Assembly (NCBI GenBank): GCA_048213135.1
Contig: PS015178.1
Location: 120,069 to 162,911 of the forward strand
Direction of reading: 5' to 3'
Length of the DNA stretch: 42,843 nucleotides
Source: Reclinomonas americana ATCC 50394
Lineage: Eukaryota
Below, one piece after another: positions 490 through 35,212 of this stretch. Both the position numbers and the translations under genes were made by a program. The notes beneath the pieces were generated by a model. It did not search any database. It saw nothing but the letters and a program-made list of their open reading frames with translations, and was not told where the DNA came from. The first letter of the stretch is position 1. Every line of letters starts with the position of its first letter.

Positions 490-863
490 GGAGAAGCGGG
501 CATAGTTCAGTTTTAGGGTGTTGTTATTTGCGACGATGAACCGCCGCGATTGCCGTGTTGAGAACAGTCAGCACTGTCGCTGGTGGTCACTCACTCATTC
601 GCAGTTTGTCGTTGGTGTTCCTTTTTCTAGTCTTCTTCGTCGTCGACCTGTTGTTAAGTAACTGCATTTTCTCTCGATTTTTTCATCTTGCGATAGTTAA
701 AAAAGAAAACAATCACTTTCCGTGTGTTCCGCTAATGCATATGTACTCACGATACCCCCATCAAACTTCACCCTCCTCCATCACTGTCACCCAGTCGTCG
801 GTCGCATCGACTGCACGCGGNNNNNNNNNNNNNNNNNNNNAGAGAGAGAGAGAGAGAGAGAGT

Positions 864-3800
864 TCAGCCCTTGATGCACCACGGCAGCAGTACCGGTAAT
901 TCGCAACACACCAGCTCCGTCAGGATCAGAGGCCAGAAGGAAATCAAATTCGAGGGAGAGATGCGCGTAATCAACACCCGGAGAGTGAAGAACACTTGCT
1001 TCTGCACCTCCGCAGTGGCTCCCGCGTACGAGCCCTTCAAACAGTCGACTGCACAGCACGAATAAGCAATTGGCCTCCCCCTCCTCCCCTCTCTCTTCTT
1101 TCCTCCACACTCACCGAGTCGCTCCTGGATGGCTGTCAGTTGCGTCAAGTAGAAATCAAAGGGTGCGGCGAACATGGCAAACGAGATGCGTTGCAGCAGG
1201 CGAGCGCGCAGAATGCCCTCGGACTCGCGCGACGCAAACACGTTCATGCTCTGGGTGCTGTTGAATTTGGCTGCGCACACACACGCGAATCAGTTTTGCC
1301 CGCTTCTCACATCATCGATATTGCACAGGGGTGCACGGACGCACCCAACAAGTCCGAGAACGACGGCTTCTCTTGGCACAACATATTGTGCACAATCGGC
1401 TTCCACGTCGATATTGTGCTCTTGTCGGACTCGAAGAAACGGTGGTCGAGGAAAATGTCCCAGGCCTCCTTCCGGAACGCCTTGACCATGTACGGATACT
1501 TGCAGAAGGAGCCCATGAGCACCACACCAGAGTAGATGTGCTGGCGCGAACTGTGACCCGCGGAGCAAATGAGCGACGAGAGTGCGCAAGTGCGCCTAAT
1601 GGGAAAGCAACACTGACCACCGCTTCTTGGAGGTGGTCGGGCGCAGCAGGTTCATCAGCTGCTGAATAGCACCCGAGACCACACTGACGGCGCGGTCCTT
1701 GTCGTCAAAGATGCGATCCACGAAACCGGCGAGGAACTCGGACAGCGTCATCAGTGGACTCTGTGGGAGTGCGGAACATGAGAAAAGAGAGGCCAGTAAA
1801 ATGCACAAGAAGATTGATGCTCCGCCGCACCTGCGACGAGTCGCGCGTCGGATCGACCGTGTCGTCGAGAACGAACGAAGCTGACGGATCTTGCAGTCTG
1901 TGTAGGTGAAGATTAGCCGCAACACTGGGCGATGAATCAACACAACAATGCCAGCCGCAACTGTGAGCTCGCCGCCTCCTTCACACCACGCTGGAATGTC
2001 TTGACCGCAACAGAAATGGAGAACTCTACATGCCGACCCACAATATCCTGTCACAAGATATACACGAGGAGTGGTGAGCCGAGTCAAGTCAGGCAGCATG
2101 CCCTCCCGCTGCGCGGGGCTGACGTACCAGCACGTCGCGCTTGACCTTGCGGTCGTCTAGCACCGCTGGTACCCGTCGAAGCAAGTCCTTCAGGATCCTG
2201 CCGACAACACATGAGCACCACCACACAAATTTGTGCTTCACATACACGCACGCACCGCAAATGCGCGACGTGGGACCACGGGTGCATGACGCGATTCATG
2301 TTGCTGTGCGAGACCACATCCTTCATGTGCTGGCACAACACTGGCACCACCGCGCGCAGCGAGTCGGGCATGGCACACTGACACACATAGTGCCACAGGA
2401 AGCTGTACACGGCTGTCTCTGACCTATTGTCACCGTGTCAGACGAAAACATCACTCGCAGAGAGAACCATCCAAGCACCACATACGCACACAGTGGCGTA
2501 GAGAGACTGCAGAGCAGCTAGTGTCGCCGGATCGGCCGACCGGCGACTCGAAGCTGAGCGCTGTCCGAGAGACTTCACGCGAACGACTTCAGTGGCCACC
2601 TGAAGGCCAGCCGCCATGATCGCATCGGGAGTGGCGCTGTCGACGCAGTTGAGTACCTCTACGACAACTGCGGGCCAGTCGCTGTCAGCTTGCGCATCGA
2701 GACCGTCCTCAAACTGTGGAGATGTGTAAGTCTACCACCCCACATGCACGCATGTGAGCTGCGAACAACAACGACGACGACGACGCAACGACCAACTCCG
2801 GCCACAGCTGACTGATGGCGCAAATCAGCTGCAAGGGGTAGTGCAACAGCAGAGGATCCACAAAGCGCAGGATGGGCTTCTCGATGCTGACTTTGGTGTG
2901 CAGACCGCCAAGTCGTGGTGCTTGTGGAGCGGCACCCTGCAAGCACCAATCAGTCACACTGTCGCCGCTGCATTACGTCTCAACGCAGGCGCAGCAAATT
3001 CCGCACCTTGGCCAACGACGGTACTCTCAGACACTTCCACACCGTGAAGAGCGACTTGAGCACTCCAGAGAGCGAGCTGAAAATGTACGTGTGCGCCTGT
3101 AACATCAATCACCAGTCAGCATCACACCGGCGTGGCAGGATTGGGAGTAGGTGGAGGGGAGAGATNNNNNNNNNNNNNNNNNNNNNNNNNNNNNNNNNNN
3201 NNNNNNNNNNNNNNNNNNNNNNNNNNNNNNNNNNNNNNNNNNNNNNNNNNNNNNNNNNNNNNNNNNNNNNNNNNNNNNNNNNNNNNNNNNNNNNNNNNNN
3301 NNNNNNNNNNNNNNNNNNNNNNNNNNNNNNNNNNNNNNNNNNNNNNNNNNNNNNNNNNNNNNNNNNNNNNNNNNNNNNNNNNNNNNNNNNNNNNNNNNNN
3401 NNNNNNNNNNNNNNNNNNNNNNNNNNNNNNNNNNNNNNNNNNNNNNNNNNNNNNNNNNNNNNNNNNNNNNNNNNNNNNNNNNNNNNNNNNNNNNNNNNNN
3501 NNNNNNNNNNNNNNNNNNNNNNNNNNNNNNNNNNNNNNNNNNNNNNNNNNNNNNNNNNNNNNNNNNNNNNNNNNNNNNNNNNNNNNNNNNNNNNNNNNNN
3601 NNNNNNNNNNNNNNNNNNNNNNNNNNNNNNNNNNNNNNNNNNNNNNNNNNNNNNNNNNNNNNNNNNNNNNNNNNNNNNNNNNNNNNNNNNNNNNNNNNNN
3701 NNNNNNNNNNNNNNNNNNNNNNNNNNNNNNNNNNNNNNNNNNNNNNNNNNNNNNNNNNNNNNNNNNNNNNNNNNNNNNNNNNNNNNNNNNNNNNNNNNNN

Positions 3801-6800
3801 NNNNNNNNNNNNNNNNNNNNNNNNNNNNNNNNNNNNNNNNNNNNNGCAACTCGGGTCCTTCTCGCTGCTGCAGTACTGGATCGACTATGTGTGTGCCTTC
3901 TTGCCGCTGCTCAACTCGTCGTTGACGGTGGTGGTATCGACCTTGGTGCCCAAGTTCTCCGAAATGATTGCCACCATGGCACTCGCTGGCATTGATGCGG
4001 TGACGAGCTCCGAATTGCAAGGTCTGCTGCGCGGCCTCACACAAACAGTGTCGTACTGCTTGCTCGAGTATGAGCCGCGTGCGGGCACGAAAGGCTGGCG
4101 AGGTGCGTTGTTGGTCGAGACCCCCACGTTCTGCAGGGTTCTGTAGACTTAGTTTGCGCGCACACGCAGTGTCGGACATGAGCTCGGGGGGCAGCGATCT
4201 GTCGCCGATCGATGTCGGCCGGGACTCATCGTTTGCCAACGACGACGCAGGCAATCAGCCCGTGGGTCTCGCCGGCAGCGGTGGAAGCTCTGGTCGCGGA
4301 CCCACGCCCAGCTCGCCATCGAACGGCGGAGGTGCTGGTGCCGATGTGGGAGCACAGGACAGTGCCGGTGGTGATGGACAAGGTGCCGCCGGTGCTTCTG
4401 CTGCTGGGTACGTGTATGTGCTTGCACAATCGTCGCTGCTGTCGCTGAATTCAATGCAGTGATGATTCAATGACTGGTGGTGTCGATCGACGGGGTGGTG
4501 CGGGCGCTCGCGGTGGAACTCTGTTGAGTGCGCCACTGCGCATGTTTACGGACTTTATCAAGGACACGTTTTCGAGCGAGAATCCGCAGGCTGAGGGTCC
4601 CTCGGCCAAGGACGAGGTAGGGAGGGAGTTTTTCGTTCAGGAGACGGGAGGAGTAGAGACGACCATTTGTTCTCCCTCCTTGTTTCCCCTCCCCNNNNNN
4701 NNNNNNNNNNNNNNNNNNNNNNNNNNNNNNNNNNNNNNNNNNNNNNNNNNNNNNNNNNNNNNNNNNNNNNNNNNNNNNNNNNNNNNNNNNNNNNNNNNNN
4801 NNNNNNNNNNNNNNNNNNNNNNNNNNNNNNNNNNNNNNNNNNNNNNNNNNNNNNNNNNNNNNNNNNNNNNNNNNNNNNNNNNNNNNNNNNNNNNNNNNNN
4901 NNNNNNNNNNNNNNNNNNNNNNNNNNNNNNNNNNNNNNNNNNNNNNNNNNNNNNNNNNNNNNNNNNNNNNNNNNNNNNNNNNTTCCTGCAGCGACCAAAA
5001 CAAGGAAGACATGTTTGGCCGACAGTTTTCCCCTCATTACAGTGACGTGAGCACCAACCTCGAGCCACTCGGTCGTGTCCAAGCCGGCATCTGTGACTGG
5101 CGACTGTGCACCAGCGCCAACCACAGATATGATCGGCAAACCGCCGGGGCCTGGACGATGTCGAATCATGGTCGATTTGGACACGGCCGCCGCCAAACCA
5201 GTGTGAATGATGCTCAAGAAGTGCGCCGACGTCACAAACGAGTCGGGCGAGATGCCACCGAGAATCAACTCCAACTCGGTGCCGCCGATAACTTCTGAAG
5301 CGCAAGAGACGAGTGCGTGAGCAAACGCACCGGCGACGACGCCATCGGTGAGAGTGTGTTGACTCACCAAACTGATCCTCGCGTCGCTGGCTGTCCGAGT
5401 CGCACGGATACTCTGCATGTTTATGCGTGTGGTGTTGGTAAACGGGATGATGCGATTCTCCCACCTTCCCCACACACACATCCACGCAACGAGGGAACAG
5501 CGAGAGAATCGACGAGGCCCACGAGCCGACCTCGGCCGACGCACGCAGCGGAGGATGACCGTCCACGCTGCGCTGCTTGCTCTGGTACTGCACCGAATCG
5601 AACTCGTATAGACGCACCAGCACCGAGTGAATGAGGGCCAGCAACTACACAGAGTACACCACGCGTTATAAGGAATTGAATTGAAACCATAGAGACACAA
5701 CCCCCTGCCGCATCAAGACGAAACGTGGACTTGCAGCACAGGATCGGCGTGCTCGACAGCGACACGCAGGTGATGGAGCGCCATGTTGGCCAGCGAGGCC
5801 GCGCACAGGACCGATCGCTTCAGCGGGCGCATGTGGAACAGCAGCGATCGGAGCAGGAACACGCTGCAGGCAAAAAAGGCAAAAAGTTACGCTCTGGCAA
5901 AGAAAGCCAACACTCAAATGTCACACAAACCTGTTGGTGCGGATTGCTGCCGCGCTGACAGCGTCCTCCACACGCAAGTCACCGTAGCCGTACACGACCA
6001 GCCGCGAGCACACACCAAGCAGCAATCCGAGGTAATCCTCGGAGCTTAGCAGCGACGTGCGGGAAGCACCGATGCCCATGTACTCGTCTGATCGTGATCG
6101 CGCACCCGTGAATACATCCCTTCATCTCACGCTAACCCTCCTCTTTGTTCCTCCACGTACCATCAGCAAACTGTGGCGGGCACACATTGGTGGCAAAGCT
6201 GTTGTACAGCGACCGAGTGACTCGGCGCGTGGCCAGCGCCTCGATGAAATCCACTGGACACACTTCGAGAATGGACTGGATCTTGCGCAGCGAATACAGC
6301 GTGCGTCTGCACAACATATACGTCAAGACACGCACACCGCCGTGTTTTTTCACAAGGCCACACACACACACACCCCTCATCCAGCATCAGCTGCGTCGTG
6401 CTGCCATTCTGTCGGCCGTACGCGAGAAACTCGTCGTCGTACAGCAGCCACAGCAGTGGATCCAGCAGACGATTCACATTGGCCACCACGGCATCGCGCA
6501 TCCACGTGCGTCCAAGCAACTGCAGATTCGGCTGTGTGGCATAGACCGTGTCGAGCATCAGGGCCAATCCGGTCTCCAGGCCGCACTCGTTCGGCTTCAG
6601 CTCGTCGAGAATACGCCAGAAGAGTGCGTAGCGGCAGTACGGCTCCAGGAAAAAGTTCTTGCTCGTCGAATCCTTGCGCACCATGTCGTCTGCATCGCAG
6701 CGAGGATGTGAGGAAGACGTCAACAAGAGTGCATGCGCCTGCGACTCTGCACACTTGCCTGTGATGACACGCTGGCACGTGTCGACGCACAACTCGTTCA

Positions 6801-11974: not shown

Positions 11975-12537
11975 CTGCACAGTGAGAGAGAGAGAGAGAG
12001 AGAGTGAGAGTGAGTCACAATCAGCGAGAGANNNNNNNNNNNNNNNNNNNNNNNNNNNNNNNNNNNNNNNNNNNNNNNNNNNNNNNNNNNNNNNNNNNNN
12101 NNNNNNNNNNNNNNNNNNNNNNNNNNNNNNNNNNNNNNNNNNNNNNNNNNNNNNNNNNNNNNNNNNNNNNNNNNNNNNNNNNNNNNNNNNNNNNNNNNNN
12201 NNNNNNNNNNNNNNNNNNNNNNNNNNNNNNNNNNNNNNNNNNNNNNNNNNNNNNNNNNNNNNNNNNNNNNNNNNNNNNNNNNNNNNNNNNNNNNNNNNNN
12301 NNNNNNNNNNNNNNNNNNNNNNNNNNNNNNNNNNNNNNNNNNNNNNNNNNNNNNNNNNNNNNNNNNNNNNNNNNNNNNNNNNNNNNNNNNNNNNNNNNNN
12401 NNNNNNNNNNNNNNNNNNNNNNNNNNNNNNNNNNNNNNNNNNNNNNNNNNNNNNNNNNNNNNNNNNNNNNNNNNNNNNNNNNNNNNNNNNNNNNNNNNNN
12501 NNNNNNNNNNNNNNNNNNNNNNNNNNNNNNNNNNNNN

Positions 12538-13498
12538 TCTTTGGCACACGCGTCGTCGACACCGCCGTGACGAGCTTGGCTCCGTTGCGCGCAATACCCT
12601 CTGACTCGTACTTGCGACCGACCATGAAGCCGGTGATATTCTGTCGCTCCCCGGTTACAAAACTTGACGAACACAAACGATGACACACGACCGACTTGTG
12701 TGTGCGCGCGCACCTGCAAGAAGAGCAGCGGAACCTTGCGTTGCGAGCACAACTCGACAAAGTGCGCTCCCTTCAACGCCGACTCGGAGAACAGAATGCC
12801 ATTGTTGGCAACAATGCCGACCTGCTGGCCGTACAACTTGGCGAAGCCGGTGACGAGCGTCTCGCCGTACAGCTTCTTCCACTCGTCGAAGCGACTGCCG
12901 TCCACCACACGCGCAATGACCTTGCGGACATCGAACGGTTGGCGCAGATCGTGCGGCACAATGCCCCACAGCTCACGAGAATCGTAGCGCGGTTCCTCAA
13001 TCTACGATAGAGAGAGAGGGGTATGTGATTGATTATTTTGTGAACCGAGAAGCAAAGAAATGATGACCGCGTCACGTACCTCGCCAGCGGAGAAGCCACG
13101 CAGTGGGTCGTTGTGCTGGCGGTAGTTGAGTGTGGCGACGGCACGGCGAGCCAGGTAGAGAGCATGCAGGTCGTCGGTGGCGTAGTGATCGGTCACACCC
13201 GACGTGCGGCAGTGCACATCGGCGCCACCGAGATCCTCAGCCGACACCACCTCACCCGTGGCGGCCTTGACCAGCGGCGGGCCGCCGAGGAAAATGGTGC
13301 CATTGCCCTTCACAATGATTGATTCGTCGCACATGGCCGGCACGTAAGCGCCACCGGCCGTGCACGAGCCCATCACCACGGCGATTTGTGGAATACCCTG
13401 CGCACTCATGTTGGCCTGGTTGAAGAAGATGCGACCAAAATGATCGCGGTCGGGGAACACGTCGGCCTGGCGTGGCAAGTTTGCACCACCGCTGTCCA
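12538..13498 (-). CDS. MCCC2: Methylcrotonoyl-CoA carboxylase beta subunit, middle exons (inverted contig)
   Basis: '[31 protein letters not shown]', '[13 protein letters not shown]', '[24 protein letters not shown]', '[12 protein letters not shown]...TTRVPK'. Confidence 0.95.
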
Positions 13499-13560
13499 CT
13501 GTGCGCGCAGAGTTGGTGGTGAGAAGAACNNNNNNNNNNNNNNNNNNNNNNNNNNNNNNN

Positions 13561-14151
13561 TCACCACCATTATCGGCGGCAGCTTTGGTGCCGGCAACTA
13601 CGGCATGTGCGGTCGTGCGTTTGATCCGCGCTTCCTGTTCATGTGGCCAAACTCGCGCATCTCGGTCATGGGCGGCCCGCAAGCGGCCAGCGTCTTGTCC
13701 ACAGTTTCGTTGGGAGAGAGACGGAGACAAAAAGGGGGTCGTTGCTGAACTCCCTTTGCTCTGCCGTGCAGATTCAGCGCGACAATATGGAGAAGAGCGG
13801 CAAGACGTGGAGCCAGCAGGAGGAGGCCGATTTTACGGTGAGTTGGCATGTCTGTGTCGAGGCGCTGCTACGCCGAACTCATTTCATTAACTGCGCTGCG
13901 TGACAGGCACCCATTGTTGACAAGTACGAGAAGGAGGGCCACCCGAGCTTCAGCTCGGCTCGTTTGTGGGACGACGGCGTCATTATGCCGCACGACACCC
14001 GCCGCGTCCTCGGTACGTTGTGCACACACGAGATTGATTGCTTTTTCAAGCTGTCTCTCACTGTGCGTGGGTGCATGCAGGCTTGGCGCTGTTGGCGTCC
14101 GTCAGGAATGCACCAATCGAGGACACGAAGTTCGGTGTGTTCCGCATGTAA
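13561..14151 (+). CDS. MCCC2: Methylcrotonoyl-CoA carboxylase beta subunit, C-terminal exons
   Basis: '[30 protein letters not shown]', '[10 protein letters not shown]', ends 'FGVFRM*' at TAA 14149-14151. Confidence 0.95.
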
Positions 14152-14248
14152 CACGATACGCTGCCCGTTCGGCTACACCCGGGATGAATACACGACGTGG
14201 TTTTCGTTTACTGATGACGCGTTCATGGCACACGATTCGATCGACCAC

Positions 14249-17200
14249 TCAAAAGTCCAGTGGGAACTTGGCTTGCTGTGCTCGGCAGGCAGTGGTGAGT
14301 GAGTTGGCCACTGGCAATAGAAGAAAGACAGAGCTCACCGTGTAGCCAGACTGATGCAAGTAATTCAACTCGTCAGTCATGTACTCGGCATACTGCTTAC
14401 GGTTGACTCCGGCGCAGCACTCCTGAATGACGCGCAACAGGTGCTCAAACGTGTACGCGTAACTCGTCGCACCTGCACGAAAGGATGGTGAGCAACACAG
14501 ATACATTGGAGAGTATCAGCAGTGACGCGCACCGAGAGCCAGCACTTTCGAGGTGCGTACGCCGACATTGTGAGACTCGCTGCCAAAGACCACCACTGGC
14601 GTCATTGCACCGTCCCTTCGCATGTCGGTGATGTGGCTGTGTGGTGTCAAAATAAGCACTCAGAAGGAAACAATCTCGGCTGCGTGCGAACAGTGACGCA
14701 ACCTGCGCATGGCACGAAGCAACTGGCACGCTTGCGCCTCAGAGTTGATGCGGTGCGTTCCACCATAGTACGTGATCACTGTACGCTCGTAGTGAGAACG
14801 GACTGCACAGCCTGCTCTGCTCTTGCAACACGCACCGAGATCAAATGGGACTTGGGCCTTGGCAGCGCGCACAAGCACCCGAAGAGCTCGCTTGATGGTT
14901 GTTGCGTGTGTCACCACGGCGCACTTGGCGTCGGTGGTGTCCAGCCATTGGCGGCGAGTGATGAACAAGTAGTCGCGTACACATCGCTGGAAGAAGCGGG
15001 TGATGAGCACGCTCCACTTGTACTGCGGTCCGACCCACAGAATCTTGCGCTCGTACAGCAGGCGGCCGACTCTGCACGAGAGTGAGCACACTGCATGTAT
15101 TGCGCGTAAGAGAAGATTGGTGGGCACGACAAACTTGAGCACTGGATTGGTGGCCTCGTTGATTCTCGACAGGTAGCCTTCGACGCCGGTGAAGTCGGTG
15201 AATCCTGTACAGCACGACAACGGGTCAGTCACAGTCGCCAGGCACCAGTGAGTGCATTCTAATGCCACACCAACCTTTGGAGTTCCACGTCAGCACATGC
15301 ACACCCTCGTGCCTCCGATAGTACTCGATCTGCATGGGTTTTGCACGAATGAGCAACGAGCAGTCCTGAACAAAGAGATCTCCATCGTGTCACACAAAGA
15401 AACCTGATGCGGCTTCATGTCCGGCAGAATGGCATACGCCGCCGGCGTGTCGCCACCAAACATGGACATCATTTCTGTGGTCGCCAAGAATTATCAGCAC
15501 CGTGGGAGAACGCAGAATCACGCGTGCATGGTCTCACCACTGCGCAGCTCATTCAAGTAGCCGTCGCTGAAGCTGAAGCCGACAAACAGCAGCGTGCAGG
15601 TCGACATGACCGACATGAGGAATGTGCGATACGGTGTTCTGTAAAAAAAACAACAGTGGTCGTCGTCGTGAGCTTGGAATGCTTACTAAGAGTGAGAAGG
15701 CACCGACAATGGAAGAGTCGCACTTGTACAGCAGATTGCGGTATCCCTGACGGGTGAACACCAACGGACCAGTGCCCGTGGTCGAGCCGTGCACCTGCAC
15801 AACCGGTGGAACATTGGTGGCTGTGCACACTTGTCAGACCTCGCTGCCCTTCAATGCAAGCGCGACAGAAACTAACCATAGTCGAACTCTTCCGCCTTCA
15901 TCACCTCGTTCCACCAGCGGTCTACGGAAGGCGGACGGAGGAAAGAGCGGAAAGCGTCGGCGCCGTCGAACGGTGTCTTGCCCGACAGCAGCGAGTCGAA
16001 ATTGGTCGTCAACTGCAAAGCCAGAGATGAGATGTGCACGAATATGCGCATGACACGGCTCGATAATGAGTGCGACGCACGATTCCACGGAAAGGAATGG
16101 AGAGCAAGAGTCGCAAGCGGTTTTTCATCTTGGGTGGAAGAGTGCCACCTGCAGAGAGTGGCACAGATGACATCAGTGGTCTTACCAGTGTCGTCTACTC
16201 GACTGAGGATGCGGAGTACGCACCTGGCAGCGTCAGCACTTGACCACACAGCAGTTTGAGCTGCACGCGGTCAAAGTTCAGTATTGAGAAAATGTTGAGA
16301 GAGATACGATAGCACGAAACTTGCTCGGGACCGAGGTGGTCTTCGAGGACTTGCGCAGCGGCATCGAACTCACGAGCATCGAGGAACGACAGCGTGCCGG
16401 CAACATCGGCCTCGGAGAACTGATCCGGATATAGCTCGCGCGCGAGGCGGGCCATGTTGCGCACAAGGCCATCCCATCTATTTACCAAGTGGTGAGTTAG
16501 TCATATCCGACATGAGTGCCAACCACGACAACACGCAACGTGGGGAAACCGGCCGGTGCCGAGAAGCCACTGCCCACGAATGCCACCACATTGCCGCGCC
16601 GCACAGCTTCAAGGAGCTCTGGAGGAACGTCGCTGAGGTTGGCGGTGGTCTCGATGAGATCGAGATCCGTACGTTCCATCAACATTGGGCCGCCGGGTGT
16701 GAGCGGAGGCTCCGACAGGGAGCGCTCCATTTGCATGCCGAAAATGTCGTCGCTGGACGACCCAGAATCCGAGACTGCGCGCGGCAGTGAGCACCACTCA
16801 CAGCACAACAGAGACACGCCAAAACGCACACACGGATCCGGAATCCATCGACGACTGCGGCGTCTCCGATCGACTCGGCGGGTGTAATGGGGCTGCCGAT
16901 GCAAAGTCGCCGGGTTTGGCCATCCACGTGGGTACGCGCATGTGCGCTGCGCAGAACAAGTCGCCCTGAGGCCAGCACGATTGAGCAACGACGAAGAGTG
17001 CTCACACCAAACCTTCAACTTGCGATATCGCGTCGTCATCGCCGTCATCGTCATCGAGGTCGTCAGCAAACAGATCGTGGTCATCGGAAGCCGCCGCAGA
17101 ATCTGCTATGCAAGCAGTGTCGTGAGAAGAGGAACGGGGGAGAAAGCAGATACGCGCGCAGACACAGGCCACCTTGAAGCGGGAAGCGCCCGAACTTGGA

Positions 17201-17952
17201 GAGATGCACCTGCGCAATGGCCTCTTGCAGACGCGGATCCGCAATGTACTCGTCACACTTGTAGCACCACACCGCCATGTCGGTCAGGCTGATGGCGATG
17301 CAGTTGGTGGTGCCGTCGGCTTCGCACGTGGCCTCGTAGTGCTTCATCATGTGTCCATGCACAAATCTGGCGGCCGCCCGTGAGAAGAGAGCTTCCTGTG
17401 GAAAGATCGAGCGAACACGGCACACGATGTGCTCATACGTACCGCGAACAGTACACTTCGTGTGACTCGAGGTTGAGCCTGGTGTGAATCAGCAACGGAT
17501 CATCATCATCAACAATCCTGACATGACAAACCAGTTCTCGCCCACATGCTCACACTCGCCACACGGACGATGCACTGTGCGGTACACACACACACACGTA
17601 CATGAGAGGAGGAATGTGCGAGAGAGAGAGAGAGAGCGTGCGCGAGGAGAGCAGACCATCAAACAATCGCTTGAGCTCAGCAGAGTCCGGATAAATGACA
17701 TGCCTGGCGACATGCGGGCACACTGTGCGTGTGTATGCGGAAAGTGAGTGATTCCCAGTGAGCTGTGACGCACAGCGACACGGCACCATCACACGCACGG
17801 CGAGAGGAGCTGGCCATGCTGGCGTGCATGCTGACAGCCGCCAGAATGTGCTGTGAGGGCGAAAGAGTGAGTGAGTGAATCGGTGGAGCAGGGGTGGGCG
17901 AGGTTCAACGCACTGGTGCGACACTTCCGTGATGCTCGTCGGCGAGAGACAT
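14249..17952 (-). CDS. zf-UBP + SIR2_2-type (ThsA/FAM118-like) sirtuin + receiver-like domain protein, paralog A (start codon uncertain)
   Basis: Spliced 'CPHV...[33 protein letters not shown]...[17 protein letters not shown]' (zf-UBP). SIR2_2 core: '[22 protein letters not shown]', 'LTTNFDSLL', 'VQVHGS...LVFTRQGY', '[13 protein letters not shown]'. C-terminal 'ILWVG...FDLVIT...PVVVFG...LALGATSY'. Confidence 0.85.
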
Positions 17953-18049
17953 GATGGGAGTTGCTTGGTTGTCCGCAAGCAGGATTTTTTTTTTGGATTG
18001 CAACGTTCATAAGTCGCTGTCTTTGGACACTATCAGTTTCATTACTTGT

Positions 18050-21000
18050 TTAGTACGTGTCGCGGGCATACCCGTGCACCTGCATGGGCACCATGTAGTG
18101 AGCACGAAGGATGCCAACAAAATACGGCAGTGTTACTACCGATCGCGACTGATTACGAAACTGGAGAATTGCCTCGATCTGCCATGTATTCGAGGAGGTC
18201 GCGCTGCGAGGCAGCCGCACAGCACTCCTCCATGGCGCGCAACAGCTGCTCAAAGGTGTACGTGTAACTCGCCGCTCCTGCGCTCACACACGAACGTCAG
18301 CATCTGCCCAGCCGCAGTGGCCGTCCCGACCAACGCACCGAGATTGAGTACTTTGCGAACACGCATGCCCACATTTGGTGACTTGCTACCAAACACAATC
18401 ACTGGCGTCAGTGCGTCGTCGCCTCCGCGATCTGTAATGCGCCTGTACCACCAAGAAAACAGAGATTGGCATGGTGACAATGTGCACGACCACCGACAGT
18501 GTGACTACTCACGCCCGCATCGCTCGCAGGACCTTGCACGCCACGGCTTCGTCTCCCTGCTGCCGTGTGCCACCGTAGTGAGTGATCACTGCACAGTGTA
18601 CAATAGTGAGATGGATCGTACAGCGACACAGCGACGGCAGCTGCAGAAACGCACCCAAGTCGAATCCGCGCTCTCTCTTCAACAACTCCATCGCGCGACC
18701 CATGCGCGTAACAGCCGTCACAATGCAGCACTTGGGGTCACTCGTCTCCAGCCATTGTCGTTGAGTGATGAACAGGTAGTCGCGAACGCATCGCCGCAAG
18801 AACTTTTGAATCAGCACCGACCATCTGTGTGCATTTGTGAGTGTGAGTGCACGATCGCGATCCACCTCAGGCGCGACAAGCATCGGTGTGTCGCCGCAAC
18901 TTGTAATGTGGACCAATCCACAGCAACCGGCGCTCATGCAGCAAGCGTCCAATTCTGTCTCGTCTTTCAGCACAACTTGCAGCAACAGCGACAACAGAGA
19001 GACAGACGAGACCACACCGAAGTACTGGGTTGGTGGCCGCATTGATGCGTGACAGGTAGCCCTCCACGCCACTCCAATCCGTGTAACCTACTTGCGCTTA
19101 GCATCAACGAGCCGAAGGCACGATGAAAACAACGCAAATAAACCTTTTGTGTCCCAAGTCAACACATGCACACCCTCGTGTCGGCGGTAATGCGCAACCT
19201 ACAGCGACAGCAGTGAGCAAGACGATAAGCAGACTACTTTCCTCACGATCGTGTCGCTTCAAAACCTGGTGCGGCTCCATGTCGGGCAGGATCGCGTACG
19301 CTCCGGGTCGATCGCCACCAAACATGGACATCATTTCTGCGGGTACGGGGGATGAGATGCTCAGCACCCAGTTCGTTTCAGCGAGCAAAAAAACAACCGG
19401 CGTACCACTGCGCAGCTCGTTCAGGTAGCCGTCGGTGAAGCTGAATCCGATGAACAGCAGAGTGCAGGTCGAGAAAACCGACATGAGGAAAGTACGATAC
19501 GGCGTGCTGCGACGCAAGGAGTTGGATGAGATGACTTGGCATGCGCGATATGCAGCAACGAATTCTCCCCTTACCGATACAGCAGATTGCGGTAGCCCTG
19601 GCGGGTGAACACCAACGGGCCGTGGCCAGAGGTGGAACCGTGCACTTGCAAGATCGGTGGCACATTCGTGGCTGCCGCGTGAAGCAACAGTTGGTCGATC
19701 TTAGTCACAACGGAAGAGAGGAGAGGCAGAGCCACTCACCATAGTCAAACTCTTCGGCCTTCATCACCTGCCACATGCGATGCAAACAAACGAGTTAGAA
19801 CGGTCCTCCACGATGTGCATCACCAACTGTGATCATGATCACCTCGTTCCACCAGCGATCCACAGGAGGTGGCCGCAAGAACGAGCGGAACGCGTCGGCA
19901 CCATCGAATGGTGTCTTTCCGGGCAGCAGCTGATCAAAGTTGGTGGTCAACTGCGCGACCGATGACGTCAATATCAGCAGAACGGAACACCAGAAGAACC
20001 ATTCAGCATGGCACGCAACAATGCCGCGGAACGGAATGGAAAGCAGCAAGCGCAGTCGGTTCTTCATAGCCGGCGGCAGCACTCCGTCTGCACGTACAGA
20101 TACACAGTCAATGACAAGCACCGCAGGAGATCGATCATGTGCATGAGAACTCACCAGGAAGACTCAGTCCATCAGCCACGAGCGCCTTGAGCTGCTACAG
20201 GATGAGCAAGGGCATATCATCCACCACTTTTGCCGACACGCACCTGCTCAGGGCCCAGGTAGTCCTCCAACACCTGCGCAGCGGCATCGAACTCGCGCCT
20301 CCGGAGAAACGCCAGCGTGCTCTGCACCTTGTCCTCTTGAAACTGTTCCGGGTACACCTCGTGGGCGCGATGCGCGACCTGTCGCACCAGCCCGTCCCAC
20401 CTGCCCCAGCCGCTCGAGTAAGCACACCACCGCATCACCCTTGTCGGTGCGTCATGGCTCGACGCAACGTCGGAAAGCCAGCGGGCGCGGAGAAACCACT
20501 GCCGACAAACGCCACCACATTGCCTCGCGCCACCTCCTGCAGCAGCTCATCGGGAATGCCACTCAGCTCTGCCGTCGTCTCACACAGATCCAGATCCGAC
20601 CGCTCCATCTGCATGACACCACCGGCCGCACTCGGCGTCGATGGGCACTGTTCCGACAGCACACGCTGCAGGTCGGCGAAATCCTCTGCGCCTCCACCAC
20701 TGCCGTTGCTGGCTGTCGTACGCACACACACGCAGATGAGCAAGCAGCGTGGCACACAGAGAACCATAATAAGCACACACGCACAAGTGTCTGATGGCGA
20801 CGAGCGGCTGGAGTTGGGCGGACTCGGCACCAAATCTGGCTCCGCCGCCGCCCATGCGTCAAGACGCGGAGTCGCTGCGATACATAACACAGTGAGCATC
20901 GTTGCTATGTACACCGCGCACAGAGACAGACGCAACGCTCTTCCTCCTCTTCTCCCTCCATCAACTCAGCATGAACACCACTGCCACTGGCCACTGAATG

Positions 21001-21102
21001 GCGCAGATACCGATCATCGCCTGCAGCTGCTGTTGCTGTGGGAGCAGCAGCAGCAGTAGTGGCCCAGAGAACGCGACGTGGCGATCGCTCGGCTTCACTC
21101 AT
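18050..21102 (-). CDS. SIR2_2-type sirtuin + receiver-like domain protein, paralog B (no zf-UBP; low-complexity N-terminus)
   Basis: ATG 21102 'MSEAERSPRR...'. Same motifs as paralog A: '[22 protein letters not shown]', 'LTTNFDQLL', 'LQVHGST', 'LLFIGFSFTDGYL', 'FDLVITHYGG', 'PVIVFG'. The 3' end at 18050 assumes a final intron. Confidence 0.85.
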
Positions 21103-21153
21103 CGTCCGTCGCTGATTACGTCCTGTGATCGTCGTCCTCGCGCGTTTCCGATC

Positions 21154-22422
21154 ATGTTGCAGGCGATTGCGCGACGACTGCCTACGCGTCGCCTTGTCCT
21201 CTGCGCGACTCGCTGCCTGTCGCAGCACAACCGACCACCAACCAGTGGCGATGACATCGATCTGATGTCGCTGCTGCAGGAGCAGAGCAGTGCGCCAGTG
21301 ACGCGCATTGAAGGCGCACGGCCACCACCGCCACCACAAGCCACAGCACCACCAGAGGTCGCACCAGTGCAGACGAGTGCGGGTACTGTGGATCTGAGCA
21401 AGAGTTGAGGCCACACGCGCGCGTGATTGCACAGTTGGATGCTCACATGCATGTGTGGATGCAGTGAGTGGAGGCGAGCTGTACGCGTTTGGGCATCGAT
21501 TGTATGAGCAGCAGGATGTAAAGGGTGCGGCGGAGGCGTGGCGATGGGCGGCGGAGAAGCACGGACACACGGACGCGCAGTATGCGTGGGCTGGTGTGTT
21601 GCGAAAGGGCGAAGGTGGTGTTGCGCGGGATTCGCTGGCTGCAGCCCGGCTTCTGCAGGATCTGGCCGCGCGGGGACACCCGTGGGCGCAAAAGAGTCTG
21701 GCTGACATGCTGTATGCGGGCGAGGGTATCAAGAAGAATGCGGCAGATGCGGTGCGAGGGTGGACGATTGCCGCACAGAATGGCATCGTCACGGCGTTGC
21801 ACAACATTGGTGCGTGCGCTCACTGCAGCAGCAGCATCTGCATACTCGTCTCTCACTTGTGTGCTTTAGGCAATGCCTATGCCTTTGGCGAAGGAGTGGA
21901 AAAGGACGTCGAAAAAGCAATATCGTGGTACTCGAAGGCAGCAGCGCAAGGCGATCCACTGGCGCAGTTCACCCTCGGCGATCGCCACTCGCGTGGCGAC
22001 GGTGTCAAGCAGGACCACAGTCTGGCTTTCGAGTACTTTTCCAAGGCCGCCACACAAGGCCTGGCCAAGGCCATCTTCAACTGCGGTGTGATGCACTTTG
22101 CCGGTCTCGGCACCCCACAAAACCTCCAAAAGGCCGCCGACATGTTCCTCGACTCGGCCTCCAAGGGCTTCGCTGCCGCCGCGGTGCGTGCATCGCTCCG
22201 TCCCACACTCACAACCGAGTGTGTGCTGACTCACAACTGCAGATCAACCTCGGCCACATGTACCGCGACGGCACAGGCATGGAGAAGCCCGATCTCAACC
22301 TCGCCCTGCACTGGTACCGCCGCGCCGCCACGCAAGCCGAAGCCGACGGAAACACCGCACAACGTGAACACGCACAGCTGCTCATCCAACGAGTCACCGA
22401 GCAGCAGCAGCAAAAGTCATGA
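21154..22422 (+). CDS. Sel1-like repeat protein with probable mitochondrial presequence
   Basis: Arg-rich, acid-free N-terminus 'MLQAIARRLPTRRLVLCATRCLS'. Multiple SLR repeats, e.g. 'AYAFGEGVEKDVEKAISWYSKAAAQGDPLAQFTLG' and 'MHFAGLGTPQNLQKAADMFLDSASKG'. Confidence 0.9.
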
Positions 22423-22434
22423 TGATTTGCTTCT

Positions 22435-22988
22435 TCACTTTATCGTCAGTGAACGCTGCGAGTCGGTGATTGTCGTGAAGCGGCCGCGATGATTAAAGTG
22501 CATGAAGCCGGGTCGATGAAACGTGCCCTCAAAGCTCCTGAGCAAGCAGCAGTGTGTGAGAGAGAGAGAGTGCAATCGGAGCATGACAGGTGGAGAATGA
22601 GCTCAACTTGCGCGCCAGCGAGTTGCGCAAGAGAATGGGTCGCAGTCGCCCTGTTTGCTGCACGTAGCCCCACACTGCCAGCGCAAAGCCTGCCACCGTC
22701 TCCACCAACACCTGCACATTGGCGCGCGGGGTGAGTGTTGACAAGCAAGCAAAGAGAGACTGAGAGTGAGAAGACGCACATCAAATGGCGGCCACGTCGA
22801 GTCATCCGCCGCCAACTCCGCGTCCATATCCGCCAGCAGCTGGCGATCTGTGCGTGCGTGTGTGCAGAGTGAGACATGTGCACACGTGTGTTTGCGCAAA
22901 GAAATGCAACGCAACAGTGCCAATAGGAGAACGCTGCGTGACATAGAATCAGCAGGCCAACGAGAACAAACACTTGCGCAAGTCGCAT
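22435..22988 (-). CDS. EMC5: ER membrane protein complex subunit 5 / MMgT family
   Basis: Spliced 'MRLAQVFVLVGLLILCHAAFSYWHYR...PPFDVLVETVAGFALAVWG...FHRPGFMHFNHRGR'. Two TM helices and the characteristic C-terminal F-x-H-R-G motif. Confidence 0.85.
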
Positions 22989-23148
22989 TTGAGAGAGAAG
23001 AGAACGAGAGAGGATGGACTCGTTCACCGATCCGATTGCTCGTGGATCACTCCCTGTCTCTGCTCAAGTCGTTGTTGTGGAGCACAGGCGGCGACGTTCC
23101 TCGCTCAGCTCGACGTCGTCACTAGCGCACGCACGACGAGCAAGGCGA

Positions 23149-23269
23149 ATGGACGTGGAAGTGCGGTGGCCGCACAGTCCCGCAGGCACCGCAGCAGTGG
23201 TCGAGGTCACTGGCAACTTCCCCGCATATGACGTTGCGTCTGTGCACACTGATTGACGCGCACACAAGA

Positions 23270-23322
<53 letters not shown>

Positions 23323-26312
23323 GCTGATCAAGTGCGACACGCACAGTGGCAGAGATTCGCACAACTGCGTTGGGACGATTCGGAACGAGTGCACAAGGTG
23401 CGTTTTCATTCTTTCTCTCTCGTTTGCTCGCTCTCTGTGTGCTGCTCATATGTGTGTGATGCGGATGGCAGGTCGTTTTGTCGGCGATTCCACCGGGAAC
23501 ATGGTGAGAGACGAATTTGCTACACATACGCGCGCGCGGTTTCGTTCACCGACTGTGTGTGTGTGTGTGTCCAGGGAATACAAGGTTGATTCTCTCTTTC
23601 ATACAGCGCATGTCAGTCGCTCAGTGCACATGTCTGATCGTCGCCGTGGTTGTGTTAGTTTCGCGTGGATGGTGAGTGGCGTGAGGACTGGACGCGACCA
23701 CGCGTGCAGAACAGCTTGGGATCGTACAACAACGTGATCCACTTGGAGCGACGGGCCATGTCGTCGTCGCCGCCGAGGCAGCGGTTGCGAGTGGGATCGG
23801 TGCACGAGACGGACCCGGCGATGCGGCATCAGGTGAGCTGTTGTCGCTCGCCGCGAGTGCCAGTCTTCTCTCTCAATCGCACGTGTTGTCTAGTCACCGG
23901 CCAAGGCGTCGGCGATTCCCGATTCGCGGGTGCGTGCTCGATTCGGTGTTGCTCTTTTGTGTCTGTGCCTTTGCTGAGCGGGGAGAGCGCGTATGTCACA
24001 GAGTTCGGCGTCGTGCGTGTCGGCGTCGTCCAGCACGTCGTCACTGGTGCGATGCGACGCTGTTCTCTCTCTTTCCTTGTCTCTCTTTCCTCATCGATTG
24101 TTGCCGAGCAGGAGGATGTCACTGATGCTGGGAGCATCACCAAGGAGGACTTTCTCACGCCGGTGCGCTTGTGGGAAATGCGACTGATGCGTCACTCGGG
24201 CACGTGGACCATGTGTGGCGAATCCGTGAGCAGCACACTGGATCAGCACCTGGCGGCCGGCGACACCAAGTTCTCGCTGGAGGATCGTGGAAGTTTCGTC
24301 GTGTTTTCGTTGCCACATCTCTCCTTCATCGGCGCGATGCTCACACACACGCACAGAGACGTACACTGTCGACCTGAAGAGCATGCTGCTGACGAACACC
24401 GCCGACGGCAAGGAGCGTGCACTGCGCTCCACCGAGTGCTACTCGTTCCCCGACAACTGCGCCCTGTTGGAGGCCATTGGCGCACCGCGTGGCTCCATGT
24501 GGGAGTACGAGACGCGCCAGACGTGGCGTCGATGCAGCGATGAGTGGTGCATGGCACTTGAGAAGTTGTACCAGATGATTCGCGCCGGCGAGGCAACCTC
24601 GCATTTGTTGCTGCTGAAGATTGGGCGAGCAAGGTGCGCGTGATTGCCGACAAGGTCGTGTGTGTCAGTACTGCCAAATTGACCGGCGATGCCGCCCAGA
24701 TTTCTCGTGGACCTGGCACGCTGCCACCAACGGCGACTCGACTCACACTCGGAGCGCCGATTAATATGTCGGCAGCACGCCGGCTCCACGGGACCGGTGC
24801 GTGAGAAGTTATTCACAGAGGAGAGTGAGCATGTAAGGAGGGTTGGCTGACTCCGACAATGATGGCTGCAGTTGTGTGCTCCGGACGACGTGGAGGGTGC
24901 GTTGGCTACGTTGCCGGTGGGGCGACCGCTGGCCGGCACTGCGGTGGACGAGGTGCTGTCCGACGGCGCCGCTTCGTCGGCTGCGTACTTTCGAGTGCCC
25001 ATGCTGCTGTCGGAGCCGCCGCACGATCACCTCAAAGTCTGTCAGGCGATACGGGATTTCATTGAGTATCGTGATATGCAAGCCCTGCGACTAATCCGCC
25101 GTCAAATCATGGTCCAGACCGGTGAGTCGCTTTCCTCGCCACGTTGTGCTGTCCCCCGAGTCGCTGACGTGTGGTGGTGTCTCGACATGATGATGGCAGT
25201 GGCTCGTGTGTACAACCTCTGGTTGCACCACGAACTGGAGGACAGCGAAGCATTTGTGCGTGCCGCACGCATGTACGCCTCGACTGCGGATCTGGTGGTA
25301 ACCGAGATGCCACGGTGTGACTCATTTTGTGTATGTTTGGTGGGATTGCATATCGAAGGAGAACTCATTCGTGCAACAGATACGAGACGCGACTGGAACT
25401 CGTCGGCGGTGACCCCATCGACAGCGCTATCGAGATGCAGGCCAGTGGCTACTCGCCCGCCGTAATGATGGTGGCCTCGTCGTCGACACCCGGTGGCGGC
25501 TTCACCCAGGGCAACAGCGGCCAAGAGGAGATGGTGTACAGAAGAACCTCCATGTTCCTCCACGGTAATCCGACTGCGTTGCCACTTCGTTCAACTTCGC
25601 TCCTCGTTTGTCTCACTTTTGTGCTCCACCAGCGCTGGATCCGCTGGGCATTGATGGTGCGCGCGACTGGCATTTCCCCTTGCCGCAATACGGTGTGTTG
25701 TACACGCCTGGCGTGCGCGTTTTGAGGCGAGGAGAGGATGCCGGCTACATGTGGTATCGCCCGCAGGGCGGCCGTCAATTGAATTTCATCACGGTGGCGG
25801 CATATGCCGATCCTCTCACTGTGCGCGGTCGTGATGGGTACGTGCTATGTCATTGTGTGCGTGTGAAGCTGTGAAGTGCCCTCATTCGGCACTGCCGGTG
25901 CAGTGAGCTGCACCTGAAGGAGGACTGGATCGTGGAGGGCATTCGCGAAAAGATCCGCTCACTGCTGCGGGTGGCTCTGCACAACGAACGCGACAGTGTG
26001 GTGCTGACGCCACTCGGCTGTGGCGCACACCGCAACCCACCCGGACACATCGCACGACTGATGCGCCACGTGCTGCTGGAGCCCGAGTTTGTCAATTGCT
26101 TTGCGTGGGTGCGAATCGCCGTCACGGAGGACGAGAACAGGTGAGAATGATCGCACGTCACGTGCACTGCACTGCGCATTGCATTCATGTGTGTAACCTC
26201 GCAGTGGTCNNNNNNNNNNNNNNNNNNNNAACCACACAATCCCGACGGCAACACGCTACCCTTCCAACGAGTCTTTGCAGATATCGTAACGAAGAAGCGC
26301 AGAGTCAAATGA
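23149..26312 (+). CDS. CBM48 (AMPK-beta-type glycogen-binding) + tandem WWE + DUF2263 bacterial-type poly(ADP-ribose) glycohydrolase
   Basis: Exons 23149-23232, 23347-23397, 23472-23503, 23575-23584 and 23659- give 'VEVRW...VEVTGNF...PPGTWEYKFRVDGEWREDWTRPRVQNSLGSYNNVI'. WWE-like 'TYTVDLKSMLLTNTADGKERALR' and 'WEYE...FLVDLARCHQRRLDSHSERRLICR'. PARG 'PGGGFTQGNSGQEE', 'GVLYTPGV', 'LGCGAHRNPP', ends 'HNPDGN...KKRRVK*'. Confidence 0.85.
23274..23321. repeat. (GT)n microsatellite in intron 1 of the CBM48-WWE-PARG gene
   Basis: Perfect GT dinucleotide run. Confidence 0.95.
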
Positions 26313-26741: not shown

Positions 26742-28694
26742 TCAGACAACTTGTCGCTTGGCGGCCGGGCTGATGGAGCGGCGTCGCGGTGACGACACAC
26801 GCTTCGCTCCCGAGTGGTCGACCTCGCCAGCCTCTCGCGACGACGCCGAATTGGACCGCGATCGTCCACGGTTCCGCGACGTGTGAACTGCGCGAAAGAA
26901 AAATGAGTGAGGGGTGGAAGATCGCGTATCACACACACGCNNNNNNNNNNNNNNNNNNNNNNNNNNNNNNNNNNNNNNNNNNNNNNNNNNNNNNNNNNNN
27001 NNNNNNNNNNNNNNNNNNNNNNNNNNNNNNNNNNNNNNNNNNNNNNNNNNNNNNNNNNNNNNNNNNNNNNNNNNNNNNNNNNNNNNNNNNNNNNNNNNNN
27101 NNNNNNNNNNNNNNNNNNNNNNNNNNNNNNNNNNNNNNNNNNNNNNNNNNNNNNNNNNNNNNNNNNNNNNNNNNNNNNNNNNNNNNNNNNNNNNNNNNNN
27201 NNNNNNNNNNNNNNNNNNNNNNNNNNNNNNNNNNNNNNNNNNNNNNNNNNNNNNNNNNNNNNNNNNNNNNNNNNNNNNNNNNNNNNNNNNNNNNNNNNNN
27301 NNNNNNNNNNNNNNNNNNNNNNNNNNNNNNNNNNNNNNNNNNNNNNNNNNNNNNNNNNNNNNNNNNNNNNNNNNNNNNNNNNNNNNNNNNNNNNNNNNNN
27401 NNNNNNNNNNNNNNNNNNNNNNNNNNNNNNNNNNNNNNNNNNNNNNNNNNNNNNNNNNNNNNNNNNNNNNNNNNNNNNNNNNNNNNNNNNNNNNNNNNNN
27501 NNNNNNNNNNNNNNNNNNNNNNNNNNNNNNNNNNNNNNAAACACACACATATACACACCGGCGGGTGATCGTGAACGCGGGCGGTCGCGGTGTGTGCTGC
27601 GCAGGAGGTCAACACAAGAGAGAAACAGAGGAGAGAGAGGAGAGACAATGGGGCAAAAGCTCACCGCGCACGCGAGGCCGATGGCGAGGGAGTGCGGCTG
27701 AAGGATCGCCGGCGGTGTCGTGGCAAGCGATCCACGCGGTGCTCGTACGACGGGCGACGCGGACTCGACCGACGTGGACTCGCATGACGCCGCGGGCTTG
27801 CGCGACGCGGGCTGCGTGCCGGACTGCGAGCCGGACTGCGCGACTTGTAGCCTTCTCGACGGTACGAAAAGGCGCGGTCTCGCTCAAGCACCGCACTGTC
27901 GCCGAGGTGAGCAACATGCCAGCAGTAATGACAGAGACAACGTACACGCACCCCGTGTTCTTGCTGCGCTTGCCGAGATCAAAGTCGACGCGGAGAACGC
28001 GGCCCTCCAGCTCCTTCTCATGGAAGCGACCGTGGGCTTTCTCGGCCTCCGCCTGGAAGAGGACAAGAGGAGAAGAGAAGGAGGAGAAGATAAGAGATGA
28101 GATGAGAAGAGATGAAGGAGGAGGAGAGACAGACGAGAAGAAAAAGAGATGAAATGAATAGAGAGGTGACACAGTGAACAGACATGCACACAGCGCAGAG
28201 ACACAGAGGGTGAGAGACAGACCTGCTCGTTGAACTCGATAAAGGCATATCCCTCGCTCTGCCCGCGATTATTCGTGCCAATCTTGATCGACTCCACTTG
28301 CCCGCACTGCCCAAAGAGCTCCTCCAGCGACTTGGCAGTCGCCGAGTACGGCAGGTTGCCCACAAACAAGTACCGCGACGGCGGGTTGCGTTGCAAGCTG
28401 CGTTGTGTAAACACACACAAAAGTGTGACATTTCCACACACTCGTTTCCTCCACAACGCACAGAGACAACTCACCGCGCACCACGTCGGAAGCCACCACC
28501 GCCGCCACCACCACCACCGTGGCCACCATGCCCGCCCTGCGCGCGCGTGTTGAGCATACACACACACAACTTGACAAAGCAAAGTGTCACAAGGGAATCA
28601 CCTCTCGCCGCTCACGTCGCCGATAGTGATCCCGATCGCGGCTCCCCGCACGCTCCGCACTGCGACTCCGACTGCGGCTGCGACGATCGCTCAT
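26742..28694 (-). CDS. SR-rich RRM RNA-binding protein (Tra2-like layout RS-RRM-RS)
   Basis: ATG 28694 'MSDRRSRSRSRS'. RNP2 'LFVGNL' and RNP1 'EGYAFIEF'. C-terminal 'RSPARSPARSPRR'. The last exon lies across an N gap. Confidence 0.8.
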
Positions 28695-33803: not shown

Positions 33804-34076
33804 ATGCGTTTGGTGACAGTCAGCACGACGGCGCTGGATCAGTGGGCGATGGATTTCGAGGGCAACCTTGCTCGTTGCGTTTGCTTGTCTCCTCCACCAC
33901 ACGAGCGTGCTTGCATGCGTGTCTGCACTCGTCTGTGGCGGGAGACGCAGAGTGCGAATCTCCCTTTTCCCTCGCTGTGTTTGTGTTGTGTGTGATCACG
34001 CACTGCTGCACATGTCACGCACACTTTCCCACTCACTGTGTGTGTGTGTGCGTGCGTGTGCGCGACTGCAGGCACG
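33804..34076 (+). CDS. NADSYN1: Glutamine-dependent NAD+ synthetase, first exons
   Basis: 'MRLVTVSTTALDQWAMDFEGNLAR' matches the eukaryotic NADSYN1/QNS1 N-terminus. Confidence 0.9.
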
Positions 34077-35030: not shown

Positions 35031-35212
35031 NNNNNNNNNNNNNNNNNNNNGAGAGAGAGAGAGGGAGAAAGCAGAAAGGGAAAACAGAGAGGCACTGACG
35101 GATTCCGAGGGAGCAGACAGCCACACACACACATGAGCGCCCACACGCTTAGTGAGAGATAGGAAGCCATCAATGGAAACGCCTTGGCCTTCCTTCTATC
35201 TCTCACACACAC

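Follow-up and report, generated by a model that had tools for sequence, protein, structure and literature searches.

According to PMC12700824, the SIR2_2/SIRim subfamily of sirtuins, which includes ThsA, DSR1/2 and FAM118, is without the zinc module that canonical deacetylase sirtuins need. NADase activity is reported for the SIR2_2 members ThsA, DSR2 and FAM118. PMC12700824 describes filament formation as necessary for the activity of ThsA, Avs5 and FAM118, and FAM118 as a clade confined to vertebrates, its members sharing at least 41% identity with the human proteins and consisting of a sirtuin domain alone. ThsA, of the Thoeris system, is a SIR2 NADase of bacteria whose C-terminal domain, SLOG or Macro, binds a ligand. 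Eukaryotic SIRims have been treated in a preprint (Bonhomme et al. 2024), the main text of which distinguishes clades A-E, reports fusions to NACHT or NB-ARC with repeats, to TPR-like and to Macro domains, and takes such fusions to extra domains as a sign of immune function. The stretch analysed here (the window) consists of 42,843 nucleotides (nt) of contig PS015178.1 from the protist Reclinomonas americana ATCC 50394. On its minus strand lie gene A, with a predicted coding span of 14249..17952, and a tandem paralogue, B. Gene A appears to combine a zf-UBP finger with a eukaryotic defence-type sirtuin; the architecture is real and unusual, and the combination was not found in the literature searched.

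The locus is eukaryotic, since its coding sequence is split into short exons by GT-AG introns; all of the introns regarded as confident in gene A and paralogue B (31 of 31) had these borders and were 49-85 nt long. The GC content at third codon positions (GC3) was ~0.70 in coding exons, compared with a GC content of 0.54 in introns. The window is draft scaffold sequence, interrupted by 12 runs of N, and both genes lie within a gap-free stretch (13561-26209). Gene A was modelled with 22 exons, joined by coordinates, from a candidate ATG at 17950-17952, the putative start, to a stop codon at 14249-14251. The frame is open across 768 amino acids (aa) and all introns are GT-AG, with lengths of 53-85 nt; without an extra linker exon the model has 21 exons and 729 aa. 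In one frame, this model encodes a zf-UBP finger, an acidic and Ser/Pro-rich linker, a SIR2_2 domain and a C-terminal domain of ~180 aa. An earlier reading of 14249-17952, made from the letters alone (the sequence-only reading), had identified the right domains but overlooked the ~180-aa C-terminal domain, the probable extra 117-nt exon and paralogue B.

The SIR2_2 domain is spread over ten exons (15135..16774, minus strand) and comprises residues ~255-555 in the 768-aa numbering, with GSGFS at 281, N383 in TTNFD, H435 in VHG and GFSFSD at 477. The profile PF13289 matched the open reading frame (ORF) 15518-15682 of gene A (E 5.5e-7, 30.2 bits against a cut-off of 24.5), and a weak second SIR2_2 piece was found on ORF 15549-15833 (E 0.028). 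The canonical SIR2 profile (PF02146) matched none of the 10 ORFs scanned at E <= 1. TTNFD stands in the position of the canonical TQNID-type motif, and there are no CxxC pairs in the sirtuin part; the only two in the whole protein are both in the finger. When single sirtuin exons were compared with the PADLOC models, matches were obtained to LmuA (4e-5), Dsr1 (7.6e-5) and ThsA1 (1.5e-4), and Aga_SIR2 was also matched. The NCBIfam Dsr1 model matched a single exon at 2.1e-4, far under its cut-off.

Used as a locus query, the sirtuin exon alignment retrieved five bacterial loci from metagenomes and none from viral contigs or genomes. The spliced gene A protein aligned in single tblastn stretches to all five, over residues 227-539 at most; four of the alignments were long (E 1.6e-17 to 1.6e-12), while the fifth covered residues 255-316 only (E 8.9e-8). 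The matching SIR2 gene was one uninterrupted ORF in each of the three loci with ORFs listed, and the sirtuin splices are therefore independently checked by these single-stretch alignments. The SIR2 ORFs of loci L001 and L002, the two of the five that were scanned with PADLOC, were both typed as ThsA1 (E ~1e-42) over the SIR2 part of the model. Judged by sequence, the gene A sirtuin belongs to the SIR2_2/SIRim, defence-type subfamily, as indicated by the PF13289, PADLOC and NCBIfam matches together with the ThsA1-typed bacterial relatives, and bacterial ThsA-type SIR2 domains appear to be its nearest detectable relatives. No FAM118 chain was found at E <= 1 in exon-level searches of solved structures, for which the exons are too short for this to count. 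In the SIR2 proteins of three of the bacterial loci (L001 6280-7569, L002 4859-6571 and L004 471-1307), Tyr replaces the His of the VHG present in A and B. Locus L002 also carries, at 321-4223 on the plus strand, a 1300-aa ORF that opens with a SIR2_2-like domain (match to the gene A spliced protein, E 3.4e-13), followed, as judged by eye, by a P-loop NTPase and then an Hsp70-like part; the gene at 4859-6571, a second ThsA-type SIR2 gene on the plus strand, lies downstream of it.

The zf-UBP domain (17173..17722, minus strand) is encoded by four exons (17657-17722, 17532-17574, 17443-17478 and 17173-17366) and extends from C32 to about residue 140 of the 768-aa model. The profile PF02148 matched ORF 17081-17488, which holds the last finger exon (E 5e-8, 33.5 bits against a cut-off of 22.7), over profile positions 23-62 of 63. 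Two small upstream exons encode 22 residues, C57 to S78, and the finger splices are supported because these fill exactly the 22 missing profile positions (1-22). The motifs are CPH (C32, H34), CGEC (C57, C60), ENW, CSRF.HGH (C77, R79, H84) and WCYKCDEY (C113, C116), so that the zinc ligands C32/H34 with C113/C116 and C57/C60 with C77/H84 are all present. A search of solved structures with the finger exon returned eight sequences at E <= 0.01, six of them from the HDAC6 ZnF-UBP and two from USP16, the best being 5g0f, an HDAC6 ZnF-UBP (E 4.8e-7). In the alignment to HDAC6, R79 of CSRF pairs with the Arg of CGRY, and W112 and Y114 of WCYKC pair with WCYYC; F80 occupies the position of a Tyr in HDAC6. 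The sequence-only reading had described an HDAC6/USP5-like finger, an acidic linker and a sirtuin that lacks zinc-ribbon CxxC pairs and the TQNID motif and is SIR2_2-type rather than one of the classical classes I-IV. This description held: every motif quoted for the finger and the sirtuin was present on the minus strand, the linker corresponds to the exon 17013-17105, and both PF02148 and PF13289 scored above their gathering cut-offs on single exons.

Between finger and sirtuin, the linker comprises the acidic exon (17013..17105, minus strand; 93 nt, phase 1 at both ends, no in-frame ATG), a Ser/Pro-rich exon and further low-complexity sequence up to about residue 250. The Ser/Pro-rich exon (16830..16946, minus strand; 117 nt, phase 1 at both ends) probably belongs to gene A. 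It divides a 238-nt intron, in a gene pair in which introns elsewhere range from 49 to 85 nt, into introns of 66 and 55 nt; its GC3 is 0.72, similar to coding exons, and paralogue B has a 120-nt counterpart in the same place and phase. At the 5' end, two putative and uncertain exons (17914-17952 and 17799-17850, minus strand) contain candidate start codons; their donors score 7.1 and 4.8 bits and their acceptors 7.2 and 5.2 bits, with no homology support for either exon. Alternative in-frame ATGs are found in the second exon and, if the transcript is unspliced there, upstream of the third exon.

From the genomic sequence it is moderately probable that the zf-UBP and the SIR2_2 domain are fused in one polypeptide. 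Phase 1 is shared by all four junctions that connect the last exon of the finger, the two linker exons and the first exon of the sirtuin. The donor of the acidic exon scores 9.4 bits, which places it at the 99.1 percentile of the 567 GTs in a 7.2-kb region and above all 31 of the confident donors under leave-one-out scoring. Because the acidic exon has no ATG, it can be translated only from the finger exons.

The alternative is that there are two adjacent genes, a stand-alone zf-UBP protein of ~175 aa ending at a TGA and a sirtuin/C-terminal protein starting in 16830-16946, with the in-frame splice path either coincidental or confined to a minor read-through isoform. We consider this unlikely, but several observations count in its favour and against the fusion. 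The fusion is a prediction from the genomic sequence. An in-frame TGA (17002-17004) lies straight after the acidic exon, 9 nt past its donor; the acidic exon and the 117-nt exon are in the same genomic reading frame with this one TGA between them. An ATG occurs a few codons into the 117-nt exon of A and likewise into its counterpart in B. Paralogue B has no zf-UBP and probably starts at the ATG in its 120-nt exon, because the only upstream splice would be an implausible 32-nt intron with a 1.5-bit donor; a sirtuin-only protein or isoform from copy A is likewise plausible. The genome is also very compact, with 97 nt between convergent stops downstream of gene A, so short spacers are not unheard of. 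No fused zf-UBP and SIR2_2 homologue was found in protein searches or in scans of metagenomes, prokaryote genomes and viral contigs, and word-based searches of the longer proteins only gave no match with the first sirtuin exon, the finger exon or P0001, a relative of the C-terminal domain.

As a control for the splice path, 300 dinucleotide shuffles of the 398-nt region between finger exon and sirtuin exon were examined. A frame-preserving GT-AG path was present in 51 of 300 with introns of 45-90 nt and in 46 of 300 at stricter site scores; the number rose to 191 without a score threshold and to 268 with introns of up to 250 nt. Since ~15-17% of shuffles give frame-preserving paths, an open frame alone is weak evidence of fusion. 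On the other side, separate genes would leave a spacer of just 59 nt with a GC content of 0.61 between the finger TGA and the next ATG, unlike the 200 nt with a GC content of 0.48 between the stop of B and the candidate start of A or the ~254 nt between the likely start of B and a divergent Sel1 gene. The best donor of the 7.2-kb region would be superfluous in a terminal exon, and the common phase of the four junctions also speaks against two genes. A fused protein would also result from read-through of the stop, or from retention of the 66-nt intron combined with read-through. The sequence-only reading was sustained in part; the fusion that it claimed is a probable one, favoured by the single open 768-aa frame, the phase-1 junctions and the strong donor, with the missing fused homologue and the weak shuffle control set against it.

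Paralogue B (18153..20904, minus strand; model of 617 aa), located by tblastn with the exons of A, repeats the sirtuin and C-terminal domain of gene A exon for exon. Its SIR2_2 match has an E value of 7.3e-7 (29.8 bits), the NAD-site motifs with the residues equivalent to N383 and H435 of gene A are kept, and CxxC is found nowhere in the protein. No zf-UBP was detected, either by tblastn or as a Pfam domain on upstream ORFs. Identity between A and B is 82% in the sirtuin (293 residues), 62% in the C-terminal domain (141 residues) and 61% in the pre-domain part (44 residues), and the ratio of nonsynonymous to synonymous substitution rates (dN/dS) is 0.097 in the sirtuin (dS 1.37) and 0.30 in the C-terminal domain. 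These ratios indicate that A and B are old, functional copies under purifying selection in the sirtuin and C-terminal parts. A pseudogene reading was rejected, as frames are open across 18-22 exons in both copies and the sirtuin dN/dS is 0.097. Because B has the sirtuin and the C-terminal domain without the finger, these two domains are the conserved core, to which copy A has added the finger. Paralogue B therefore constitutes a natural control, with the same sirtuin and C-terminal domain and no finger.

A doubtful further 5' exon of B lies at 20937-21102 (minus strand). The acidic exon upstream of B was rejected as a homologue of the acidic exon of A, since its splice would require the 32-nt intron. 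Two introns, 19768-19842 (75 nt) and 18825-18900 (76 nt), occur in B and not in A and represent intron gain or loss after the duplication; the other intron positions and phases all agree in the shared region.

The C-terminal domain of gene A (14249..15071, minus strand; four exons) belongs to no known family and ends near residue 735. It gave no match in Pfam, PADLOC or NCBIfam, and with the C-terminal ORFs and P0001 as queries there was none at E <= 1 to 10 to the PADLOC ThsA models, their SLOG part included, or to Pfam. Profile searches found no solved relatives (best E 0.39). In an exhaustive search of 1.84 billion representatives with the C-terminal ORF, only two proteins were retrieved at E <= 0.001, P0001 (185 aa, E 7.9e-8) and P0002 (114 aa, E 2.1e-6). 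Both are short fragments and singletons, on contigs 1071 and 559 nt long, and no full-length protein was among the relatives. When the C-terminal alignment was used to scan for loci, metagenomes, prokaryote genomes and viral contigs yielded nothing. The AlphaFold2 (AF2) model of P0001, built from a 9-row alignment, was poor (predicted local distance difference test score, pLDDT, 49.0; predicted template modelling score, pTM, 0.42); in it, strands and helices alternate as in a Rossmann-like alpha/beta domain. This suggests that the C-terminal domain is probably an orphan of alpha/beta type. It sits where ThsA has its ligand-binding domain, a likeness in position and not in sequence. The domain is almost unrepresented in public protein data and could be a new ligand-sensing module.

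Taken as a whole, the locus is tentatively best explained, with a chance somewhat short of even, by a four-part polypeptide acting as a ubiquitin-tail-linked, NAD+-consuming sirtuin. Such a protein would consist of an N-terminal finger of the HDAC6/USP kind, a flexible linker of ~115 residues, the SIR2_2 domain and the ~180-residue C-terminal domain. By its kinship with SIR2_2 family members, the sirtuin is predicted to consume NAD+. The core switch would be the sirtuin with the C-terminal domain, by analogy with the effector-plus-ligand-domain layout of ThsA, and the zf-UBP of copy A would bind a free C-terminal Gly-Gly tail, as in free ubiquitin and unanchored chains, and thereby provide a further input. 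Binding by the finger may recruit or concentrate the enzyme and so lead to assembly and activation, the likely setting being stress, infection or cell-death control. Some points weigh against this explanation. Ubiquitin binding and NADase activity of the gene A product are predicted from the families of its domains. The extra CxxC pair that forms the third zinc site of HDAC6 is absent from the gene A finger; HDAC6-type ZnF-UBP domains have three zinc sites, and the third is also missing in USP5. A survey of human ZnF-UBP domains (PMC13493902) counts six non-binders of ubiquitin among 14, with eight binders.

If the protein is fused, the sirtuin might instead modify a protein or ubiquitin, by ADP-ribosylation or deacylation, and not deplete NAD+ in bulk; the finger would then deliver ubiquitin or ubiquitin-marked material, as the HDAC6 finger does for a deacetylase of a different fold. 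Sirtuins can transfer ADP-ribose, and the SirTM subfamily ADP-ribosylates proteins, as stated in PMC12700824; among solved structures the finger is closest to HDAC6, and a gene with a WWE domain (an ADP-ribose reader) and a microbial-type PARG domain (an eraser) lies ~3 kb past paralogue B. This alternative is nevertheless improbable. The domain is SIR2_2, neither SirTM nor canonical SIR2, the zinc module required by canonical deacetylases is absent, the activity reported for ThsA, DSR2 and FAM118 is NADase, and gene neighbourhood is weak evidence in eukaryotes. That the finger is a non-ubiquitin module, structural or binding another C-terminal tail and without a role in ubiquitin sensing, is very doubtful: it would fit the missing zinc site, the human non-binders and the USP16 finger, which also takes histone H4 and Fubi tails, but the ubiquitin-tail pocket consists of a key Arg and up to five aromatic residues (both from PMC13493902), and the pocket Arg, Trp and Tyr of gene A align with those of ubiquitin-binding HDAC6.

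The ubiquitin-linked NADase could be extended to a cell-autonomous immune or death switch of a protist, a eukaryotic counterpart of a bacterial defence island, although with all its parts taken jointly this is a long shot. In such a switch, the finger would read free ubiquitin-type C-termini and license assembly and activation of a ThsA-like NADase, and the inputs would be unanchored chains, the activity of pathogen deubiquitinases or viral polyprotein fragments ending in Gly-Gly. Paralogue B and the shared orphan C-terminal domain would answer a second, small-molecule signal, while the nearby WWE-PARG gene would read and erase ADP-ribose products.

The surroundings of the two genes were also annotated. 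Only a Sel1-repeat gene, on the opposite strand and starting ~250 nt from paralogue B, lies in the ~3 kb between B and the WWE-PARG gene. The WWE domain (24230-24640, plus strand; PF02825, E 1.7e-6) and the microbial-type PARG catalytic domain (25321-25722, plus strand; PF10021, E 1.1e-10) both scored above the Pfam cut-offs and are probably parts of one multi-exon gene combining a reader and an eraser of ADP-ribose. ORF 32243-32926 was considered as PARG-like and rejected, as it had no Pfam match. Pieces of a glutamine-dependent NAD synthetase lie at ~34000-36300 on the minus strand, with NAD_synthase matched by one of 109 ORFs (E 8e-4) and CN_hydrolase matched under the cut-off on 35924-36286 (minus strand; E 1.2e-3). 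If the two sirtuins and the WWE-PARG gene are counted as well, several NAD/ADP-ribose genes fall within ~22 kb.

On the other side, the carboxylase gene ends 97 nt (14152-14248) from gene A, the two stop codons being convergent, and the 3' untranslated regions of both genes must be very short or overlapping because the stops are so close. This gene encodes a carboxyltransferase of the methylcrotonyl/propionyl-CoA carboxylase beta type (12021-14151; PF01039, E 1.3e-42). Its front and middle parts are on the minus strand, from 13832 down to 12021, and its C-terminal part is on the plus strand after a gap (13530-13560), with the stop at 14149-14151; the split between strands probably reflects an inversion introduced when the draft assembly was scaffolded. 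Further along the window are an RRM protein at 27884-28597 and MmgE/PrpD at 41795-42514 (E 1e-45), and of the 109 ORFs two each matched the N-terminal domain of Dopey (E 2.1e-15) and the C-terminal domain of DOP1 (E 5.9e-13), their place being likely at 5-10 kb of the window. Scans of the window with Rfam and for tRNA genes gave no match.

To our knowledge, triggers of defence-type sirtuins have been established solely in bacteria, for members such as ThsA and DSR2. If gene A is as proposed, a eukaryotic defence-type sirtuin fused to a module that reads free ubiquitin tails would have a concrete, testable trigger. The ubiquitin system, which is specific to eukaryotes, would then be connected with an effector that stems from bacterial immunity. 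The literature searched held no zf-UBP and SIR2 architecture, no antiphage SIR2 with ubiquitin binding and no relevant report linking unanchored ubiquitin to NAD+ depletion. The words 'ubiquitin', 'UBP' and 'zinc finger' are absent from the main text of the SIRim preprint, the supplementary tables of which may list such a clade. Within these bounds, the impression of the sequence-only reading that the architecture had not been described before was supported.

Among described systems, ThsA is matched by the core of both paralogues in having an N-terminal SIR2_2 domain followed by one compact C-terminal domain and in the presence of the GxG, Asn and His motifs; both of the bacterial relatives that were typed, out of five loci, are ThsA1. 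The differences from ThsA are that the C-terminal domain resembles neither the ThsA models (SLOG part included) nor any Pfam family in sequence, that copy A carries a zf-UBP in addition, and that both genes are eukaryotic and intron-rich. No TIR family, as in a ThsB-type partner, was found in the window ORFs scanned (109 and further sets), among which short exons could conceal one. HDAC6 differs from gene A in that its finger is C-terminal, whereas that of gene A is N-terminal to a sirtuin-fold, NAD-using domain, and in that its enzyme is a zinc-dependent deacetylase of another fold; the gene A finger is also without one of the three zinc sites. The two are alike in the tethering of an enzyme to a reader of free ubiquitin tails, and no solved structure is closer to the finger than the ZnF-UBP of HDAC6. 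With the eukaryotic SIRims, gene A shares a defence-type sirtuin that is fused to extra domains in a eukaryote.

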